From positions 8,165-72,164 of IMG/VR virus record IMGVR_UViG_3300028805_000076: a DNA stretch of 64,000 nt, one strand, 5' to 3'. Positions 5,979 through 58,678 of the stretch are shown here, piece after piece (positions within the stretch are counted from its first letter, which is position 1; each line of letters begins with the position of its first letter). Made by a program: the position numbers and the translations under genes. The notes beneath the pieces were generated by a model. The model worked only from the letters and a program-made list of their open reading frames with translations, did not search any database and was not told the DNA's origin. This DNA comes from a virus. Taxonomy: Duplodnaviria; Heunggongvirae; Uroviricota; Caudoviricetes.

Positions 5979-6353
5979 TTATCTATGTTGTAATATGCTG
6001 ATTTTCAGTGTTTTATTGATATTATCGATATGTTCTTCAGAGAGTGTTGTACCGAGATAGTGTATGAATTGCGCATCGCTATTATACCAGAAGCTCCAAC
6101 CTTCATAAGTATTATCCCAAGATAGAGTAGTGTTAATGAAATCTACTCTATTATTTTCAATCATGTAAGGCAGATAAAATTTGATGACATTTTGAATATT
6201 CATTTCAATTTTTTTATCTTTCTTAAAGAAGTTGTTTACTCTGGATAATACCTTTTTATTTTTTATATTATTGGCGAATTTATCTGACAGACCGTTTTGA
6301 TTAATGTATCTGATAAACAAATCAATAAGTAATTTAGTATAATATTCTTTCAT
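5979..6353 (-). CDS. small paralog-family protein (FRFLKDNxAYDxY ... EGxxFW family), member 1
   Basis: start moved to an internal ATG (6353) to match paralog N-termini; C-terminal W..T.EG..FW motif. Confidence 0.5.
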   Translation of the reverse strand: MKEYYTKLLIDLFIRYINQNGLSDKFANNIKNKKVLSRVNNFFKKDKKIEMNIQNVIKFYLPYMIENNRVDFINTTLSWDNTYEGWSFWYNSDAQFIHYLGTTLSEEHIDNINKTLKISILQHR

Positions 6354-6384
6354 AATTATAATTAAATAAATTGTTATACACATA

Positions 6385-6402
6385 GGTACTTAATTAAGTA
6401 CC
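6385..6402. repeat. 18-bp perfect palindrome GGTACTTAATTAAGTACC (copy 1)
   Basis: exact palindrome in an intergenic spacer between tandem minus genes. Confidence 0.8.
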
Positions 6403-6753
6403 CTATTTTCCATTGAATTGAGTAAAATGGTATTTGTGTGATATTAATCTCCAATTATAATCTAAATCCAACCAAAAACTATGCCCTTCAAATGTAGTTC
6501 CCCAATTAAAGAAAATGCTAATCCAAGCATCTGGATGATATTTATGTAGCAACTTATATTTCATATCAGCTTCTGAATCACAATATGGTCTACTAGAAAG
6601 ATAATTTTGCGGATGACATAATGAATAATTCAAATAAGAGTCATAAGCATTATTATCTTTCAAAAATCTAAAAAAATATTTCAAAAATTTAATTTTTAAA
6701 TTGGATTTAATTTCTAATAATTGTTCTACAGTTAATTTTTTAACGTGTGTCAT
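6403..6753 (-). CDS. small paralog-family protein, member 2
   Basis: FFRFLKDNNAYDSYLNY and FNWGTTFEGHSFW motifs. Confidence 0.5.
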   Translation of the reverse strand: MTHVKKLTVEQLLEIKSNLKIKFLKYFFRFLKDNNAYDSYLNYSLCHPQNYLSSRPYCDSEADMKYKLLHKYHPDAWISIFFNWGTTFEGHSFWLDLDYNWRLISHKYHFTQFNGK

Positions 6754-6785
6754 AATAAGAGAAATAAGTAGTGTAAGTATCTATA

Positions 6786-7106
6786 CTATTTTTTTTTTAT
6801 ATACAAATCATCATCTAATAAATCTTTCCATTTGGAATGTAAAAAGCTCCAATATAAGCTTCCTTCATCAGTTTTTCTCCAAACGAAAGCTTCCATTATC
6901 CAACTATATGGGCTTAATCGATTAAAGAATTGTCTTATTAAAGTAGGATTCACATCGTTTGTTTCTTTTATTTTTTTTAATGTTTTATACAAAGGATGTC
7001 CTGGGCACATAGCTGTATGAGACATATTGAACGTATACTTATCATATGCATTCTCATCCTTCAAGAATCTACAGAATTTTGGTATTATATCACTGTTTGC
7101 TTCCAT
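6786..7106 (-). CDS. small paralog-family protein, member 3
   Basis: CRFLKDENAYDKY and WRKTDEGSLYW motifs. Confidence 0.5.
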   Translation of the reverse strand: MEANSDIIPKFCRFLKDENAYDKYTFNMSHTAMCPGHPLYKTLKKIKETNDVNPTLIRQFFNRLSPYSWIMEAFVWRKTDEGSLYWSFLHSKWKDLLDDDLYIKKK

Positions 7107-7130
7107 ATGTTATATATATATAGATATATA

Positions 7131-7148
7131 GGTACTTAATTAAGTACC
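7131..7148. repeat. 18-bp palindrome GGTACTTAATTAAGTACC (copy 2)
   Basis: exact copy. Confidence 0.8.
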
Positions 7149-7155
7149 CCATTTT

Positions 7156-7476
7156 TTATAATACTCCAGCCATAAATTCAAAATTGAATTCATTACCTTT
7201 ATCAATTGACTGAAGAAGCTTTTTCCATTCTATATTAATATCCTTCCAAAAGTAATGGCCTTCTTTTGTTTCTCTCCAAATAAAAGCATAGAATAATAGT
7301 TTTTCTAATCGAGCAGTCTGGTAGATGTATTTATCATAATCCCTTTCGTGTTTTATTGGACTACCATTACAATATATGCCATAATAACAATTGTAAACAA
7401 ATTTATCAAAAGCGTTATGTTGTTTTAACAATCTTTCGAATTTTCCAAGTATTTCTTTACGTCTTTCGTTAGTCAT
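7156..7476 (-). CDS. small paralog-family protein, member 4
   Basis: FERLLKQHNAFDKF and WRETKEGHYFW motifs. Confidence 0.5.
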   Translation of the reverse strand: MTNERRKEILGKFERLLKQHNAFDKFVYNCYYGIYCNGSPIKHERDYDKYIYQTARLEKLLFYAFIWRETKEGHYFWKDINIEWKKLLQSIDKGNEFNFEFMAGVL

Positions 7477-7786
7477 AATTATTAGTTATTTTTTTATATA
7501 AAATTTTCCATTTATAATCAAGTTTTGACCAAAAATCCCAACCTTCTATTGTTTCAGACCACGCAAATGCATCATGAATCAAAAAAGGTAACAAATTATT
7601 TTGTTTCATTCGAATAATGTATAAATCAAAGTTTTTTTCTTTTCTTGCTGGATTACTAGTGCAAAGAACTCCATTATAACAGTAATTTACAAATATGTCA
7701 AAAACTCTCTTTTCCTTTAAAAATCTTTCAAATTTTTTAAGGATATATTTATGTTTGTTTATTGCTCTTGCATATTCTTTATTCAT
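7469..7786 (-). CDS. small paralog-family protein, member 5
   Basis: FERFLKEKRVFDIF and WSETIEGWDFW motifs; 8-nt overlap with member 4. Confidence 0.5.
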   Translation of the reverse strand: MNKEYARAINKHKYILKKFERFLKEKRVFDIFVNYCYNGVLCTSNPARKEKNFDLYIIRMKQNNLLPFLIHDAFAWSETIEGWDFWSKLDYKWKILYKKITNNYD

Positions 7787-7805: not shown

Positions 7806-7823
7806 GGTACTTAATTAAGTACC
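7806..7823. repeat. 18-bp palindrome GGTACTTAATTAAGTACC (copy 3)
   Basis: exact copy. Confidence 0.8.
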
Positions 7824-7988
7824 CTTATATTATTTTTAGCATTTTTTTTGAAAATACAATAAATCAACATAAATATATAAAAAAAAATTGATAACGTCAA
7901 TTATCAAATATTAAAAAATATTAAAAAAAGATGAAGGTCGTTTAAGCCTCCATCTTTAACTGATAGCCAGAAATATAATATCTTTTTG

Positions 7989-14220: not shown

Positions 14221-14463
14221 TTAACATATTTCATAAAATTTCTTAATACTGTCCATTATACTGAATAACTCAAAATTTGACAGTGCTGTCAGCTTATAGA
14301 TATAACCAAGAGGGAATTGAATCTTTCCAATTCCATCCTCAATAAATACATTAATATCAGTTGTCCCGTAATTAACATAAACGTTTGGAATTGAAAGACG
14401 ATATTGTTCATCTTCTTTACCATATCTTCGCATCAGCTTATGTATTCCCAATAATAGATTCAT
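14221..14463 (-). CDS. hypothetical protein
   Basis: 80-aa ORF. Confidence 0.45.
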   Translation of the reverse strand: MNLLLGIHKLMRRYGKEDEQYRLSIPNVYVNYGTTDINVFIEDGIGKIQFPLGYIYKLTALSNFELFSIMDSIKKFYEIC

Positions 14464-14488: not shown

Positions 14489-14506
14489 GGTACTTAATTA
14501 AGTACC
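14489..14506. repeat. 18-bp palindrome GGTACTTAATTAAGTACC (copy 4)
   Basis: exact copy, followed 18 nt later by a hairpin with a T-run. Confidence 0.8.
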
Positions 14507-14519
14507 CTATTCTTAATGT

Positions 14520-14556
14520 GCAAAAGCATCAGCTTTCACAAGCTAATGCTTTTTAG
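14520..14556 (+). terminator. hairpin + T5 (loop contains TTTCACAAG)
   Basis: gcatcagc-tttcacaa-gctaatgc then ttttt. Confidence 0.4.
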
Positions 14557-14595
14557 AACCCACGAAAAAATAGGTAAAGTTATGAAGAAAGTATG

Positions 14596-14685
14596 TTGGT
14601 AGAGATGGATTTGAACCACCGAAGCCTCATAAGAGGCGACTGTGCCACTAAACACAGCCCCATTTGACCGCTTTGGTATCTACCG
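14596..14685 (-). tRNA. class-II-like tRNA (long variable arm), atypical 8-nt anticodon loop, anticodon unresolved
   Basis: acceptor cGGTAGA/TCTACCa, D arm CCA-AAGCGGTCAAA-TGG, T arm GGTGG-TTCAAAT-CCATC, variable hairpin GCCTC-TTAT-GAGGC; anticodon stem CTGTG/CACAG encloses TTTAGTGG. Confidence 0.45.
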
Positions 14686-14687
14686 AA

Positions 14688-14779
14688 TGGTTGATAGAGA
14701 GGGATTCGAACCCTCGAAGCCTCCGAAGAGGCGGTTGAGCTACTAACACAACCCCATTTGACCGCTTTGGTATCTATCG
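14688..14779 (-). tRNA. class-II-like tRNA, paralog of the previous, encoded CCA, anticodon unresolved
   Basis: same 5' half; T arm GAGGG-TTCGAAT-CCCTC; 3' end TCTATCA-A-CCA; loop region TTAGTAG. Confidence 0.45.
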
Positions 14780-14872: not shown

Positions 14873-15325
14873 TTACTTCAAATACAAGTTCTCCAAACGG
14901 TTGTTGAACTTATTACCATCTTTATGGAAAAGACGATGACCACCTTCTATTGAGCCATTGAATGTTTCATAGACAAGATAACAAGCTGTAAGCTGTACTT
15001 GCCCCCACATACTGCGATTCAAGCGAACTGTCGGATTCTTGTGGCTTTTGTTTGCTGTCTGCTTCATAACATGCTTGGTGTATTTGTTGCGAATACGACC
15101 AAGGTTTGAAGCCTCATAGCCAATATATGGGGAATCTTTCCAAAACTCAATTTCATCCACGTCATAGTTGATAACAAGCCATCCATATTCATCAGAAAGA
15201 TAGTTGTTGATGGCATCATAATCGTCAGCTTCAATGTAATTTGGAAGCTCTACCTCGGTTGGAAGGGTGATGTCTTCGCCATCAGTCTTCCATACAATGT
15301 TAATAGCTTTATATTTACAATCCAT
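14873..15325 (-). CDS. HNH homing endonuclease (NUMOD4 + HNH_3-like)
   Basis: YIGYEASNLGRIRN (NUMOD4-like) and GGHRLFHKDGNKFNNRLENL (HNH); start set at ATG 15325 below the promoter. Confidence 0.6.
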   Translation of the reverse strand: MDCKYKAINIVWKTDGEDITLPTEVELPNYIEADDYDAINNYLSDEYGWLVINYDVDEIEFWKDSPYIGYEASNLGRIRNKYTKHVMKQTANKSHKNPTVRLNRSMWGQVQLTACYLVYETFNGSIEGGHRLFHKDGNKFNNRLENLYLK

Positions 15326-15334
15326 AGTGATATT

Positions 15335-15380
15335 GTTTTTTAACGCTGCAAAGATAGGTAAAAATCGGCAATGCTGCAAG
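15335..15380 (-). promoter_or_regulatory. Bacteroides-type promoter (TATCTTTGCAGCG on minus)
   Basis: plus gctgcaaagata 15346-15356. Confidence 0.5.
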
Positions 15381-15424
15381 ATTTAACGACACTTTAACAA
15401 AACATTAACCAATATGTTAAATTA

Positions 15425-15485
15425 AAGTTAAAGTACCAGAAATATTTGGAATTGTAGTGAAAAAGCTCTATCTTTGCAGCGAGGA
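15425..15485 (+). promoter_or_regulatory. repeat-module promoter TTAAAGTACCAGAAATATTTGG...TATCTTTGCAGCGAGG
   Basis: -33 TTTG and -7 TATCTTTG (15469-15476); module repeated at 17460, 20925, 23770. Confidence 0.45.
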
Positions 15486-17369: not shown

Positions 17370-17410
17370 AATTTCACGGTGCAAAGATAGGGAAAAAATC
17401 AATACCATCC
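17370..17410 (-). promoter_or_regulatory. promoter + conserved leader (TATCTTTGCACCGTGAAATTAAAACAATTACTAACATTAAAA)
   Basis: plus gcaaagata 17382-17389. Confidence 0.55.
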
Positions 17411-17459
17411 AACTTTTTTCTTAACATTAACAAAACTTTAACCGATATGTTAAATTAAT

Positions 17460-17515
17460 GTTAAAGTACCAGAAATATTTGGAATTGTCACCAAAAACCC
17501 TTATCTTTGCAGCGA
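17460..17515 (+). promoter_or_regulatory. repeat-module plus promoter TATCTTTGCAGCGAGGGAAAGAGCATACAGC
   Basis: -7 box 17502-17509. Confidence 0.45.
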
Positions 17516-17670: not shown

Positions 17671-18451
17671 CTTACTACTCTTGCTTTGATACAAGCCAAC
17701 TTCGTGAGTTGTTGTAGTCTGGACTATTTCTTCACCATGCCAATTTGGTTTAGGTGTTTCGTATATAGTCTCTACGCCATTTAGGATAAATATCCATTTA
17801 GTAAGCCATCGCCAAAGTTTATGTCACCATAAACAAGGTTTCTGTTTGTTAGCGAAATTCTACTTCCCAATATTTTTTATTTATTGTTTTTTCCTTTCGG
17901 AAAGGAAGCACTCTTAATGTTTAGACCTCGATAATTATCTGTTTGTGCGTGGCAATTAGGGCATAAAATTTCAAGATTCTCTAATCTATCATCGGTTGTT
18001 ATTCCATTTTTATGGTGTAACTCCAATGGTATTTTTTTACCCATCCATTTTGTAAGCCCACAACATTCACATTTTTCTTCTTTAATTTGTTCTCTAAAAA
18101 GCCTATTTTTTAATTTATAAGAACTATAATGAGAATTCTCAACTAATAATTCATCGGTTTTTATTTGGCGTTTAGGATTAAATTTTAAACCTATATTCCA
18201 ACCTTTACCCGTAAAATGTGAAATATCAATTTCATACTTTTCAATAATTTTATGAAGAGTATTATAATTCCCACCACAAGGTTTTAAATTAAAAAACCTA
18301 AGCATTTCAGCAATACTATGTGAACATTTTGCTGCTTCTACATATTCTTCTTTCGTTCTTTCTTTTCTCATATCATATTACTTTAATAATAAATAGTACG
18401 ATATGAGAAAAAGTAATCACGAAATTATGACTATATTTTGGCCTTTACCAA
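17671..18451 (-). other. group-I-like intron in the tRNA-Leu anticodon loop (U34/A35), carrying an HNH ORF
   Basis: classic tRNA-Leu(UAA) intron position; exon ends in U, intron ends in G; R-like AGACUAUAUAC and S-like GAAAUAGUCC elements after the ORF. Confidence 0.6.
17877..18371 (-). CDS. HNH endonuclease (intron-encoded)
   Basis: CECCG...ELHHKNGITTDDRLENLEILCPNCH. Confidence 0.65.
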   Translation of the reverse strand: MRKERTKEEYVEAAKCSHSIAEMLRFFNLKPCGGNYNTLHKIIEKYEIDISHFTGKGWNIGLKFNPKRQIKTDELLVENSHYSSYKLKNRLFREQIKEEKCECCGLTKWMGKKIPLELHHKNGITTDDRLENLEILCPNCHAQTDNYRGLNIKSASFPKGKNNK

Positions 18452-19654: not shown

Positions 19655-19700
19655 TTAATTTTTACACCGCAAAGATACAGGAGATTTTTGAATTTTCCAA
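19655..19700 (-). promoter_or_regulatory. Bacteroides-type promoter (TATCTTTG on minus)
   Basis: plus caaagata 19670-19677. Confidence 0.5.
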
Positions 19701-19799
19701 GAAATTTTACGTCTTTAACATTATTTTAACATTTCAGTTAACAAATGTTAGTTCTGACGAAAGTCTTCGGCATAGCCTTCTTTGTTTTTTTAATGTTAA

Positions 19800-19994: not shown

Positions 19995-20035
19995 ATTTCA
20001 CGGTGCAAAGATAAGGAAAAAATCAATACCATCAA
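19995..20035 (-). promoter_or_regulatory. promoter + conserved leader
   Basis: plus caaagata 20006-20013. Confidence 0.5.
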
Positions 20036-20092
20036 AGAATTTTCAGTTATTTAACCAGTTTTTAACATATGTGTTAATTGAATTTAACAAAA

Positions 20093-20110
20093 GGTACTTA
20101 TTTAAGTACC
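20093..20110. repeat. palindrome variant GGTACTTATTTAAGTACC (copy 5)
   Basis: 8-bp arms intact, centre changed. Confidence 0.7.
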
Positions 20111-20385
20111 CCATATGCATATATACAAACAAAAAAAAATGGACACAGTTTCACAACTATATCCATTTTATCTTTTACCTTGTGCCACTTTCACAAGCTC
20201 GTCACACGGTAACACATCTTTCATCTTATCGAGTGTTGTGTTTTTTCATTAATTTTGTTTTTCAGTTTATAAAAATACTCGATAAAAAATCCTTTGCCAT
20301 CACTCTTTCCTCTAATATAAATATATACAATTTTTTATTAAAATCAAAATTTATTCATATTTTTTTTTAATTTTTTTTTTGTTTA

Positions 20386-20860: not shown

Positions 20861-20924
20861 TCAGCAAGAAATAATACTGTATTAACAAATTTTTAACAGT
20901 ATAGTTAAATCCAAGTTAAAGTAC

Positions 20925-20970
20925 CAGAAATATTTTGTACTCTCACGAAAAAGCCCTATCTTTGCAGCGA
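20925..20970 (+). promoter_or_regulatory. repeat-module plus promoter TATCTTTGCAGCGAGGGAAAGAGCATACAGC
   Basis: -7 box 20957-20964; the first ~40 transcribed nt match copy 17510-17550. Confidence 0.45.
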
Positions 20971-22794: not shown

Positions 22795-22825
22795 TTCGTA
22801 ACACAAAGATATAATAAATAATAAT
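22795..22825 (-). promoter_or_regulatory. Bacteroides-type promoter
   Basis: plus caaagata 22804-22811. Confidence 0.45.
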
Positions 22826-22944
22826 CAAATCCAAGAAATAACTGTGAAAAAATATTAATGTGAATAGATTTTAACATTTAAGTACCCTATATAATAATGG
22901 CTTGACGATTATCGCCAAGCCATCTATCTGCAAGTCAGAAGAGA

Positions 22945-23705: not shown

Positions 23706-23769
23706 TTTTTTGACTCAACCAAATTTTTTACAAAAAAAATGATGCCTATTAAGTTTATTTAACAATTGT

Positions 23770-23835
23770 GTTAAATTCAGGTTAAAGCCATTAAAATATT
23801 TTGTACTCTCACAAAAAAGCACTATCTTTGCAGCG
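23770..23835 (+). promoter_or_regulatory. repeat-module plus promoter TATCTTTGCAGCGAGGGAA
   Basis: -7 box 23823-23830. Confidence 0.45.
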
Positions 23836-23854
23836 AGGGAATTGAGTGTGGTCA

Positions 23855-23872
23855 GATACTTAATTAAGTACC
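23855..23872. repeat. palindrome copy 6 (GATACTTAATTAAGTACC)
   Basis: one substitution from the consensus; lies ~25 nt after the plus promoter. Confidence 0.7.
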
Positions 23873-23887
23873 CTATTTGGCAGCACA

Positions 23888-23930
23888 AAAAATGGCATCG
23901 ACTTTCACAAGCCAATGCCATTTTTCTTTT
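23888..23930 (+). terminator. intrinsic terminator (loop TTTCACAAG)
   Basis: aatggcatcgac-tttcacaa-gccaatgccatt + tttttctttt. Confidence 0.5.
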
Positions 23931-24559: not shown

Positions 24560-24590
24560 TTTTGACGGTGCAAAGTTAGTAAAAATATCA
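24560..24590 (-). promoter_or_regulatory. Bacteroides-type promoter
   Basis: plus caaagtta 24571-24578. Confidence 0.5.
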
Positions 24591-24658: not shown

Positions 24659-24676
24659 GGTACTTATTTAAGTACC
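24659..24676. repeat. palindrome variant GGTACTTATTTAAGTACC (copy 7)
   Basis: same variant as copy 5. Confidence 0.7.
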
Positions 24677-24864
24677 TATTAACAAATGCCCAAACCAAAT
24701 TGATGGAATGGGCATTTTGTTTAGAATAAGCTAACTGAAAGCCTCATAAGCCACAAGATACCGAAGTATCCTATACATACTGTTGCCACACACACGATAA
24801 AGCAACACAGTATGAAAGCCAAGTATTTGGCATAATCGAGCACCTCTTTCATAACAGTACTGTA

Positions 24865-26059: not shown

Positions 26060-26115
26060 TTTGTTGTTTTAATGTTAGTAACTCTTGTTTAATTTTCACG
26101 GTGCAAAGATAGTGC
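26060..26115 (-). promoter_or_regulatory. promoter + conserved leader module
   Basis: plus caaagata 26104-26111. Confidence 0.55.
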
Positions 26116-26188: not shown

Positions 26189-26206
26189 GATACTTATTTT
26201 AGTACC
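26189..26206. repeat. degenerate palindrome copy 8 (GATACTTATTTTAGTACC)
   Basis: arms largely conserved. Confidence 0.5.
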
Positions 26207-26259
26207 CAAATATATAATGAAAAATGCCCCACACTGAAAAGTGTGGGGCATCCTCTGCG

Positions 26260-56510: not shown

Positions 56511-57671
56511 ATGAAAAAGGAAGAATTAATTGAAATAAAGAAAGATAAAACTGGTACTGGTTTGCTTATAGAGCACGATGGATATATCAAACCAAACAGT
56601 CAACTAATCAAGGAAAGTATGGATGGTGAATGGCATTGTCCATTTCCATTCGTAGTTGATGCCGTATTTCAAAAGGCTGACGTAAAAAATGCGAATGGTC
56701 GTATTTATCCAAGAAAAATACTTGAAAGGGAAATTGAAAACTATCAGCAAAAAATACGTGAACATAGAGCACTAGGGGAATGCTATACACCAGATGTATT
56801 AGTCTTATGTGTAGATGGTTGGAAATGTATTTCTAGTATCACAGAAAATGATTCTGTATTAACTTTAAACACCTCTACCAACGAAATTGAAATCCAAAAA
56901 GTATCCAAAAAAATTGAATATGATTATGATGGTGAAATGATTAGGTTAGAAAGCAGTAACATATCTGATTTAGTTACACCAAATCATGGGTATCCAATAT
57001 ATAATGATAAAGATATTTTTGAAAATTTTTACACTGCTGAAGACATATTTAATGGTAATATAAATAATATTGAAAAATGTTATATTCCTAAATTTGTACC
57101 ATCTTTTGCTAATTGTGTTTCATTAAACAAAAATAAATTAATAGTTACAAAAGAAAATTATTGTGGGAAAGTAATGTGTATAGAAGTACCAAATCATACT
57201 TTTTACGTTATGTCAAATGGTAAATGCCATTGGAGTAAAAACTGCAATCACCCTAGTGATTCCACTATAGACCTTGGAAGAATCAGCCATAATATCATTG
57301 AATTGCATTGGGAAGGAAATACAGTAGTAGGTAAGCTTGAATTGAATATCAGTGAAGGTTTTAGAAGAAGCGGTATTTGCTCAACTCTTGGTGATACTGT
57401 TGCTAATCTTCTATTGAATGGCTATAAGATTGGTGTATCTTCTAGAGCAGTAGGAAGCGTAGAACAGAAACTTGGTGTACTAGTGGTTGGAGATGACCTA
57501 GAACTTATTTGTTGGGATGTGGTTAGCGACCCTAGTACAAATAATGCTTGGATAAGTATGAATGGTAAAGAAGAAATGCAAACTTGGATTGAAAATAAAG
57601 AAAATGTTGGAAATTCAAAAAATATTATTTCTGAAAAAATTACCAAAATAAAAAATATTTTAAATGGTTAG
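56511..57671 (+). CDS. protein with a mini-intein; extein resembles a T4 gp21-like prohead protease (low confidence)
   Basis: Hint blocks: CYTPDVLVL..DGWKCISSI (A), LVTPNHGYPIY (B), VMCIEVPNHTFYVMSNG (F), SKN|C (G). Confidence 0.5.
   Translation: MKKEELIEIKKDKTGTGLLIEHDGYIKPNSQLIKESMDGEWHCPFPFVVDAVFQKADVKNANGRIYPRKILEREIENYQQKIREHRALGECYTPDVLVLCVDGWKCISSITENDSVLTLNTSTNEIEIQKVSKKIEYDYDGEMIRLESSNISDLVTPNHGYPIYNDKDIFENFYTAEDIFNGNINNIEKCYIPKFVPSFANCVSLNKNKLIVTKENYCGKVMCIEVPNHTFYVMSNGKCHWSKNCNHPSDSTIDLGRISHNIIELHWEGNTVVGKLELNISEGFRRSGICSTLGDTVANLLLNGYKIGVSSRAVGSVEQKLGVLVVGDDLELICWDVVSDPSTNNAWISMNGKEEMQTWIENKENVGNSKNIISEKITKIKNILNG
56781..57242 (+). other. mini-intein (Hint domain, 154 aa, no endonuclease domain)
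   Basis: Cys1 at aa 91, terminal Asn at aa 244, +1 Cys. Confidence 0.5.
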
Positions 57672-57691: not shown

Positions 57692-58678
57692 ATGATATTT
57701 ATTAATATAAATATTATTTTTTGTATGGGTAAAAAATTAACAACAGAAACGTTTAAAATACAATTAGAAAAAGAACATCCAAATCTAGAATTGTTATCTG
57801 AATATAATGGAAATAAAAATTATATAACTGTACGATGTAAAATACATAACTACGTTTTTAATACAAAACCAAATTGGCTTCATAAAGGGCAAGGATGCCA
57901 AAAATGTTATGATGAAAAAAGAGGTGAAACAACAAGGAAAAAAATAGAAGATTTTATAAAAGAAGCGAATTTAATTCATAAAAATAAATATGATTATTCT
58001 AACGTTGTTTATAAAAACAATAAAGCCAAAATCTGTATAATTTGCCCAATTCATGGTGAATTTTGGCAAACTCCAAATAAACATTTAAGTGGTCAAGGAT
58101 GTCCAAAATGTTCTGGTAAAAATAAAACAACAGAAGAAATTATTGATATTTTCAACAAAATTCACAAAAATTATTATAACTATAATAAAGTTGAATATAA
58201 AAATAATAAAGCTAAAATATGCATAATTTGTCCTATTCATGGTGAATTTTGGCAAACACCAGAAAAACATATTCAAGGAGAGGGTTGTCCATTATGTAAA
58301 TCTAGTAAATTAGAAATGACTGTTAGAAATTTTTTATTAGATAATAATATTGATTTCATAAGGCAAGCCAAATTTAATTGGCTAGGCAAACAATCATTAG
58401 ATTTTTATTTGCCAATATATAATATTGCAATCGAATGCCAAGGAGAACAACATTTTAAAGAATTTAGTGGGAAATTTAAACTTAAAAATACATTAGATAA
58501 AAGAATACAATTAGATATAACAAAAAATGATTTATGTAACAAAAATGGGATAAAAATATTTTATTTCTTTAATAGAAAATGGGAACATAAATCTTTAGAT
58601 AAAATTTTCAATAACATATATAATTCCAATGTGATATTTGAAAATGAAATTAGTAAATTAAAAGATATTTTAAGTTAA
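57692..58678 (+). CDS. zinc-finger repeat protein with a C-terminal DUF559/Vsr-like PD-(D/E)xK nuclease domain
   Basis: two ~60-aa repeats ...CPIHGEFWQTP.KH..G.GCP.C; C-terminal DFYLPIYNIAIECQGEQH. Confidence 0.45.
   Translation: MIFININIIFCMGKKLTTETFKIQLEKEHPNLELLSEYNGNKNYITVRCKIHNYVFNTKPNWLHKGQGCQKCYDEKRGETTRKKIEDFIKEANLIHKNKYDYSNVVYKNNKAKICIICPIHGEFWQTPNKHLSGQGCPKCSGKNKTTEEIIDIFNKIHKNYYNYNKVEYKNNKAKICIICPIHGEFWQTPEKHIQGEGCPLCKSSKLEMTVRNFLLDNNIDFIRQAKFNWLGKQSLDFYLPIYNIAIECQGEQHFKEFSGKFKLKNTLDKRIQLDITKNDLCNKNGIKIFYFFNRKWEHKSLDKIFNNIYNSNVIFENEISKLKDILS

Follow-up and report, generated by a model that had tools for sequence, protein, structure and literature searches.

Almost no regulatory signals have so far been experimentally defined in the uncultivated jumbo phages of gut Bacteroidota. 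In the 64 000-nt stretch of viral DNA analyzed here (the window), an 18-bp perfect palindrome, GGTACTTAATTAAGTACC, recurs between genes, which raises the question of what such a sequence does there. The original prediction offered an operator for a dimeric phage or host regulator, an RNA processing hairpin or a nuclease target, and set aside an ordinary intrinsic terminator. Our analysis favors, at a probability of roughly 0.55, a sequence-conserved stem-loop of the terminator or attenuator type that marks gene ends in giant T4-like phages from Bacteroidota of the gut or rumen; the palindrome is probably not a repressor binding site. Being short and searchable, the sequence can be combined with the TAnnTTTG promoters of these genomes to give a partial map of their transcription units.

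The phage and its variable region

Pfam and PHROG matches in the window include markers of a T4-like jumbo phage: a prohead protease (Peptidase_S77), an RNA ligase, an NAPRTase, a Kyanoviridae Gp96 protein and HNH/NUMOD4 endonucleases. Nucleotide and protein searches found no close relative among GenBank phages. An intein/HINT-like insert (weak Pfam matches) is located in the prohead protease gene, which is followed by an HNH endonuclease gene, with more HNH/NUMOD4 ORFs elsewhere in the window (Table 1). The T4 late-promoter consensus TATAAATA lies 1–14 nt upstream of several start codons, including those of a 2378-aa ORF and the prohead protease gene, and its position ahead of probable late genes suggests T4-like late transcription. 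As an explanation for the palindrome, a late promoter of the T4 type was rejected, since the consensus does not occur after the palindromes.

Promoters recognized by Bacteroidota sigma-A have a −33 TTTG box and a −7 TAnnTTTG box. About 25 promoters of this type, of the form TAnnTTTGCA..G, were found in the window and point to a Bacteroidota host. Between 8.6 and 27 kb, nearly every small gene has its own promoter (TTG...TAnnTTTGCA(C/G)CG), and the small ORFs of this variable, ORFan-rich region belong to no known families. Canonical terminators, with a G+C-rich hairpin and a T-run, are common in the window. Rfam at gathering thresholds returned tRNAs only. ARAGORN called two adjacent tRNA-like genes of 91–92 nt, a tRNA-Thr(agt) and one whose anticodon has four bases (tagt); neither was reported by the Rfam tRNA model at the gathering score.

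Copies of the palindrome in the window

Four exact, four near-exact and one truncated copy of the palindrome were identified, all within 6.3–26.2 kb (Table 1). The pattern search, allowing up to three mismatches, gave eight matches against 0.07 expected by chance, and none of 100 shuffles reached eight; these coordinates and counts agree with the original prediction, whose half-site we place at 22878–22886. A literature search for the sequence found nothing. The neighboring genes are on the minus strand throughout, and 'sense' refers to that strand below. With the most plausible gene calls every copy is intergenic, as first proposed. The only listed ORFs that overlap copies, 20071–20370 (+) and 23715–23921 (−), both cross terminators and promoters and are probably not genes.

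The copies fall into two classes. Class A comprises the four exact copies, each directly followed by TAT(A/G)T or TTATATA and then by a start codon, with no host-type promoter after it; the measured distances to these minus-strand starts are in line with the 19–40 nt given before. In class B (20093, 22878, 23855, 24659 and 26189), the copy is followed by the motif ATGTTAAA and then by a host-type promoter 66–155 nt downstream. The reported position of these copies after a ttaacat motif was found for 20093, 24659, 26189 and the half-site, and not for 23855. Only the copies at 6385 and 7131 are intercistronic, both within a tandem array of five diverged paralogous ORFs (5979–7786, minus strand). 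These ORFs are 105–123 aa long and share a G..FW...W motif; they have only weak matches to phrog_16354, and related ORFs occur at about 39.3–39.7 kb and in one metagenome locus (L026). Seven of the nine copies (six full and the truncated one) have a terminator or hairpin 7–55 nt ahead of them.

The predicted folding energy of the palindrome as an RNA hairpin is −6 to −12 kcal/mol, and G.U pairs make the fold slightly more stable on the sense strand. The earlier finding that no U-tract follows on either strand is right for the sense direction, where no copy has a clear one (the best is TTTTG at 20093). It does not hold for the plus strand, on which all four exact copies have at least five T within the next eight bases and are flagged as terminator-like by a terminator scan. 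This T-richness may be no more than the complement of A-rich 3′ ends in the upstream genes.

Table 1. Palindrome copies and neighboring features in the window, and leader loci of related phages
Feature	Position	Strand	Context
Exact palindrome	6385–6402	−	Abuts TAG stop of gene 6403–6753; ATG at 6350, 31 nt on
Exact palindrome	7131–7148	−	7 nt past stop of 7156–7476; ATG at 7106, 24 nt on
Exact palindrome	7806–7823	−	55 nt behind canonical terminator 7879–7907; 19 nt before ATG at 7786, which opens the first gene of the five-paralogue array
Exact palindrome	14489–14506	−	15 nt behind canonical terminator 14522–14554, which comes after the two tRNA-like genes; 25 nt before ATG at 14463
Loop variant (sense AAAT), 1 mismatch	20093–20110	−	20 nt behind terminator 20131–20169; TTTTG next in sense direction, then promoter (−7 box 20006–20013)
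Truncated copy, GGTACTTAA	22878–22886	−	12 nt behind hairpin 22899–22921, which is weaker than the canonical terminators and has ATTATTAT after it instead of a T-run; promoter downstream at about 22804–22821
Variant, sense GGTACTTAATTAAGTATC, 1 mismatch, G.U at pair 2/17	23855–23872	−	14 nt behind terminator 23887–23925; plus-strand promoter 23823–23841 ends just upstream of the palindrome
Loop variant, 1 mismatch	24659–24676	−	7 nt behind terminator 24684–24718; 80 nt upstream of −7 box 24571–24578
3-mismatch variant, sense GGTACTAAAATAAGTATC	26189–26206	−	13 nt behind terminator 26220–26251; −7 box 26104–26111 lies 77 nt downstream
tRNA-like genes (ARAGORN)	14595–14685, 14688–14779	−	Adjacent
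HNH/NUMOD4 ORFs	14873–15379, 17877–18371		
Prohead protease gene	56511–57671		Intein/HINT-like insert
HNH endonuclease gene	57692–58678		Follows prohead protease gene
Late-promoter consensus TATAAATA	41043, 56489, 59648(−), 27373(−), 54439(−)		1–14 nt upstream of start codons
Promoters with TTTGCAGCGAGG(G/A)AA	8668(+), 9085(−), 10806(+), 15473(+), 17506(+), 20961(+), 23827(+), 25562(−)		
CTTGTGAAAG motif	14533–14542, 20188–20197, 23902–23911	−	Each 27–80 nt upstream (sense) of a palindrome
GTTAA(A/C) / TTAAC repeat clusters	about 15390–15450, 17400–17470, 19690–19740, 20030–20090, 20870–20930		Between −33 box and palindrome or divergent promoter
Leader loci of relatives	L002 8380–8516; L006/L251, L031, L042, L052, L065, L070, L072, L074, L089, L094, L099, L102, L107, L112		Outside the window

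Placement at gene ends in related phages

The exact 18-mer is present in five other IMG/VR contigs of 280–400 kb and in 82 metagenome loci. Allowing up to three mismatches, we collected 180 distinct sites from related phage contigs and loci; the collection was drawn by similarity to the 18-mer, so that conservation of the core is partly by construction, and related sites in it are partly dependent on one another. The exact sites comprise 57 in co-directional, nine in convergent and none in divergent contexts, and the corresponding numbers with near-copies included are 101, 28 and two. Counted by intergenic region, with classes that rest on rough gene calls (ORFs of at least 50–60 aa), the element occurs in 35% of convergent (32/92), 17% of co-directional (119/694) and 3% of divergent regions (2/69; Fisher p = 3e-7 for convergent versus divergent). 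Of the 101 co-directional sites, 59 lie −13 to +30 nt from the upstream stop codon, which is often inside the element, either as GGT ACT TAA or as a TAG that shares the element's first G. The spacing to the next start codon is broad, from 1 to about 200 nt. Genes and elements alternate in arrays at two metagenome loci (L026 and L029) as they do in the window array.

The element is preceded by A or G and mostly followed by T or C, so that most stems exceed 7 bp. Behind the hairpin there is a T-run at 27 of the 101 co-directional sites and an A-run at five. A host-type promoter comes after 31 sites in relatives, and a T-tract is present at 22 of these, including 18 of the 23 that are stop-adjacent; no other hairpin was apparent by eye in the printed sequences of these 23 sites. 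By this inspection, the hairpin with its T-tract is the only apparent terminator-like structure from stop codon to promoter at such sites in relatives, and the dismissal of a terminator role in the original prediction was too strong.

The clearest series comes from an orthologous position in eight phages, between a gene ending in ..EWYA* and a conserved promoter, where the site is retained in the way that the original prediction had suggested checking. The core GGTACTT/AAGTACC is kept and followed by a T-tract, the loop varies (AATT, GAAT, ATTT, AAAC, GAAA, AATA), and the pairs flanking the core covary (AU, GC, GU, UA), with 95.8% of cells paired compared with 39–65% when the partners are slid. 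This series shows that selection acts on a stem-loop. Gene-end placement, near-absence from divergent regions, T-tracts, freely varying loops and covarying stem extensions together indicate a gene 3′-end RNA hairpin rather than an operator. The hairpin among the functions first proposed is supported by the same placement, variable loops and flanking covariation, and also by a leader RNA in relatives that carries the palindrome as its apical hairpin.

Read in the direction of the genes, the 5′ arm is more conserved than the 3′ arm, and the two outer pairs have 26 G.U against five A.C combinations (binomial p = 2e-4). This excess fits selection on the sense transcript, and it is confounded by AAGTATA variants. 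We downgraded it as proof of RNA-level selection because these 3′-arm variants make an AU-rich TATA sequence before the next start codon. An RNase III site was also considered and rejected, as the stem is much too short.

Comparison with known gene-end elements

The closest described system is the stem-loop part of the PeSL/PmSL cassettes of T4-type phages (Arbiol et al. 2010, PMC2839356; Comeau et al. 2014, PMC4122927). These cassettes are found in hyperplastic regions, join a terminator or attenuator stem-loop to an early promoter and mediate modular shuffling; the terminator or attenuator function of the PeSL stem-loop was proposed, and tested for phage RB49 (PMC2839356, PMC4122927). Like PeSL, the palindrome is found in a hyperplastic, ORFan-rich early region of a T4-like phage, lies between an upstream stop codon and a strong host-type promoter (five class B copies and 31 sites in relatives), has a stem motif that is relatively conserved within the phage group, and is associated with indels or replacements between close relatives (at 6385, 20093 and 22878, a small sample). 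It differs in having promoters of the Bacteroidota type (−33 TTG, −7 TAnnTTTG) where PeSL has the sigma-70 type, and an exact A/T-rich 18-mer shared across distinct phages where PeSL has a loose G-run/C-run. In addition, the element occurs alone between packed genes, inside a leader RNA and, in the window, behind a separate canonical terminator. The PeSL idea of terminator–promoter cassettes as shuffling units would be extended by this element from phages of Proteobacteria to another host phylum.

With intrinsic terminators, the element shares a hairpin right past the stop codon, a T-tract after it at part of the sites in relatives and sometimes an A-tract before it, and a distribution over gene 3′ ends that is enriched in convergent and depleted in divergent regions. 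Unlike them, it has a short, A/U-rich stem and a conserved sequence, and the window copies have no sense U-tract. REP elements are thought to act as mRNA 3′-end stabilizers or attenuators and as recombination hot spots. The REP/BIME sequences of enterobacteria resemble the palindrome in being short, repeated and extragenic, located at gene 3′ ends in co-directional and convergent but not divergent regions; the present element differs in being found in a phage and in being a perfect palindrome of 18 bp, where REP is imperfect and about 35 bp long. Conserved C(UUCG)G hairpins are found in the intercistronic regions of T4. These are likewise small hairpins of conserved sequence that recur between cistrons of a T4-type phage, with another sequence and loop type; the stability of the present hairpin does not involve a special tetraloop.

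We propose that the palindrome is the DNA image of an RNA stem-loop with a 7-bp core (GGUACUU/AAGUACC) and a 4-nt loop, often extended by flanking pairs, which would serve as a standard end-of-cistron element in one clade of T4-like jumbo phages from Bacteroidota of the gut or rumen. At or across a stop codon and with a U-tract, it would be the intrinsic terminator of the upstream gene and would insulate the next host-type promoter; the stem-loop and the early promoter together would make up a PeSL-like cassette. For copies that have no U-tract and lie between closely spaced genes, a role as an attenuator, or as a hairpin by which RNA 3′ ends are protected or defined, is more likely. The window copies would be of a weaker kind, two of them intercistronic and seven behind a terminator, where they would act on read-through transcripts. 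Because these copies have no clear sense U-tract and mostly follow a terminator, we infer their exact role: they may be attenuators or back-up terminators, RNA-end hairpins, or both, and recombination linkers as well. Actual termination or RNA stabilization, and any protein partner, are likewise what we infer from the observations above. Some features argue against our proposal. The seven copies behind a terminator would not be on terminated transcripts, an A/U-rich stem of 7 bp would make a weak terminator, and the core sequence is kept while the canonical terminators in the window drift, which is not expected if only a hairpin is needed.

Core conservation and a leader RNA in relatives

The 18-mer core is kept in unrelated contexts and across phages without other nucleotide similarity, which points to sequence-specific recognition by a protein or in recombination, and the strictness of this conservation in the stem hints at a partner acting in trans. 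It is possible, if unlikely, that the 18-nt hairpin is the site of a dedicated phage RNA-binding or RNA-processing protein, which would provide 'operon punctuation' by cutting or protecting the transcript at every cistron boundary, in a logic comparable to that of Cas6 on CRISPR repeats. In some relatives, a Cys-rich protein of 75–81 aa is possibly this factor and would then autoregulate through a structured leader that contains the same hairpin.

This leader, of about 115–140 nt, was found in at least 14 distinct relatives (Table 1) between a TAtaTTTG promoter and the Cys-rich ORF (MDKIKRYR..C.YCDSY.EC..GNGCSAFDNS..), with the palindrome as its apical hairpin. Its elements are ordered GGGGCAA ... 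GGUAUC ... hairpin ... AAAUCUUGCG(U/C)CA ... UUGCCCC, such that GGGGCAA and UUGCCCC form a closing helix and two covarying helices surround the conserved loops GGUAUC and AAAUCUUGCG(U/C)CA. The helices other than the palindrome have nine double-change pairs versus 3.6 in shuffles and are 91.6% paired. One leader (L006) was retrieved without requiring the palindrome, and its hairpin GGTACTTATTTAAGTACT has a loop change and a G.U pair. Half of these Cys-rich ORFs have GT* at their end, which places the end inside a second copy of the palindrome. The leader has no Rfam match and the protein no Pfam family, and we consider the leader a candidate for a new cis-regulatory RNA. In IMG/VR, the protein was found in one further contig only; a tighter leader pattern retrieved only two true leaders there, and a loose gapped pattern only noise. 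Neither the leader nor the Cys-rich ORF has a counterpart in the window, and as the protein is absent there and rare in IMG/VR, it is not a candidate for the partner in this phage.

Differences from a close relative

A search with the helicase protein gave a single match, to IMG/VR contig 3300028888_000044 (387 kb), which is 91–96% identical to the window. Seven of the nine palindrome positions are base-for-base the same in this roughly 93% identical relative, variants included, while the flanks differ. The pattern GGTACTTANNTAAGTACC has six matches in the whole contig, all in the region homologous to 6–26 kb of the window. Three changes between the two phages are linked to palindromes, a small sample. 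Gene 4 of the paralogue array (6403–6753) is only 60–66% identical between the phages while its neighbors are 90–100% identical; one of its identity breaks falls exactly on the edge of the 6385 palindrome, a copy that is kept in the relative, and the gene appears from this profile to have been swapped. The 20093 copy is part of a 42-bp segment, with AACAAAA repeats at its boundaries, that is missing from the relative. The palindrome corresponding to 22878 is complete there, and the half-site of the window is therefore a derivative with an 11-bp deletion.

With the same 18 bases at many cistron boundaries, the palindromes provide islands of identity for exchange, duplication and loss of cassettes. 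An element that is primarily mobile or recombinogenic at the DNA level, whether REP-like, attC-like or a nuclease target, with secondary effects on expression, would be compatible with these three changes, and the internal stop codons, the gene-element arrays and the placement at 3′ ends and not in divergent regions resemble REP and attC. HNH/NUMOD4 endonuclease genes are also nearby. We nevertheless regard this as an unlikely account. No RAYT or other Y1 (IS200-type) transposase, integrase or other recombinase was seen among the window ORFs scanned. Moreover, 18 bp is short for homologous exchange, breakpoints are to be expected at any conserved island even if no dedicated mechanism exists, slippage at short repeats can explain the indels, and the T-tracts and sense-strand polarity indicate selection on transcripts, as in the stem-loop reading.

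Operator and promoter interpretations

In the operator interpretation, a dimeric phage or host protein would bind the 18-bp dyad and repress or activate promoters, or form a roadblock at the ends of transcription units. The dyad is perfect, its core sequence is conserved over the 180 sites beyond what pairing requires, the distance to the −7 box is 77–80 nt in three window modules with 76–77 nt recurring in relatives, and a roadblock would be compatible with gene-end placement. Over all sites, however, the downstream −7 box is anywhere between 30 and 148 nt away, which is no fixed position. Together with this spacing, the contrast between divergent and convergent regions and the stop codons inside the element disfavor the operator first proposed. 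Many sites lie between genes about 25 nt apart, and an operator gives no role to T-tracts or covarying stem extensions and no reason for the loop centre to be free to vary. The suggested search for a helix-turn-helix protein gave none, as about 41 window ORFs contained no Pfam domain for DNA binding, whether HTH, RHH or other. We therefore consider this interpretation quite improbable.

Bacterial genomes show no enrichment either, with 12 exact matches in 596 Gb against about nine expected by chance. Three of the 12 are mis-binned phage contigs from relatives of this phage, and several are a single type of site in Gallionella. This near-chance number indicates that the palindrome is an element of a phage clade and not a regulatory site in wide use among hosts. 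A small conserved gene (MNAIPAQEIKRRGIA...) of Gallionella and other MAGs (L025, L027, L030, L032, L034, L060, L077) has the identical 18-mer between a −10-like box and its ribosome-binding site. There the 18-mer resembles an autoregulatory operator, which could be counted in favor of the operator interpretation, and its identity with the phage element is most likely a coincidence of sequence.

The TATA-like sequence that follows all four exact copies, 19–31 nt before the ATG, could instead belong to a phage-specific middle-type promoter, in which palindrome and TATATA are read by a modified host polymerase or a phage polymerase to serve genes without a host-type promoter, analogous to MotA-box middle promoters or the N4 hairpin promoters. 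At 7806 and 14489, the next genes follow a terminator and have no TAnnTTTG promoter, so that some promoter is needed. There is also a precedent in the PmSL elements of phage nt-1, in which a stem-loop is combined with a middle promoter. Several observations make such a promoter very unlikely. In relatives the ATG is sometimes 1–4 nt past the element, leaving no room for a promoter, and many sites have T-runs after them or are in convergent regions. Translation initiation regions in Bacteroidota typically lack Shine–Dalgarno sequences and are AU-rich, and a TATA-rich sequence before the start codon is expected in any case. No phage polymerase or activator was found in the window, where the 2378-aa ORF has WG/beta-propeller repeats and is not a polymerase.

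That the copies have no function and are by-products of gene and promoter-module duplication, as might be suggested by the three copies of the tandem paralogue array and by four others in promoter modules that are paralogous (TATAGCTGA..ATGTTAAA) but do not all have a palindrome, is scarcely credible, because the 18-mer is identical where paralogues have strongly diverged and flanks differ, recurs in unrelated contexts in phages without other nucleotide similarity, and is conserved in the close relative while its flanks diverge, the opposite of the neutral expectation.

Other repeated signals in the window

Additional repeated motifs were observed in the region of the palindromes (Table 1). 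The motif CTTGTGAAAG occurs three times against 0.23 expected; in two of the three cases it forms the loop of a canonical terminator, and in two metagenome loci (L104 and L110) the palindrome is preceded by the same loop. Eight promoters share TTTGCAGCGAGG(G/A)AA, with none expected. Most are divergent from the promoter of a protein gene and reach the neighbor's bidirectional terminator after 40–90 nt, which predicts short transcripts whose 5′ ends conserve the sequence GCGAGGGAA. Transcription from the promoter at 23827 (+) would run through the 23855 palindrome on the plus strand. GTTAAAT/ATTTAAC-like motifs are plentiful near the window promoters, and the clusters of GTTAA(A/C) and TTAAC repeats may be an UP-like element or the binding site of another factor.
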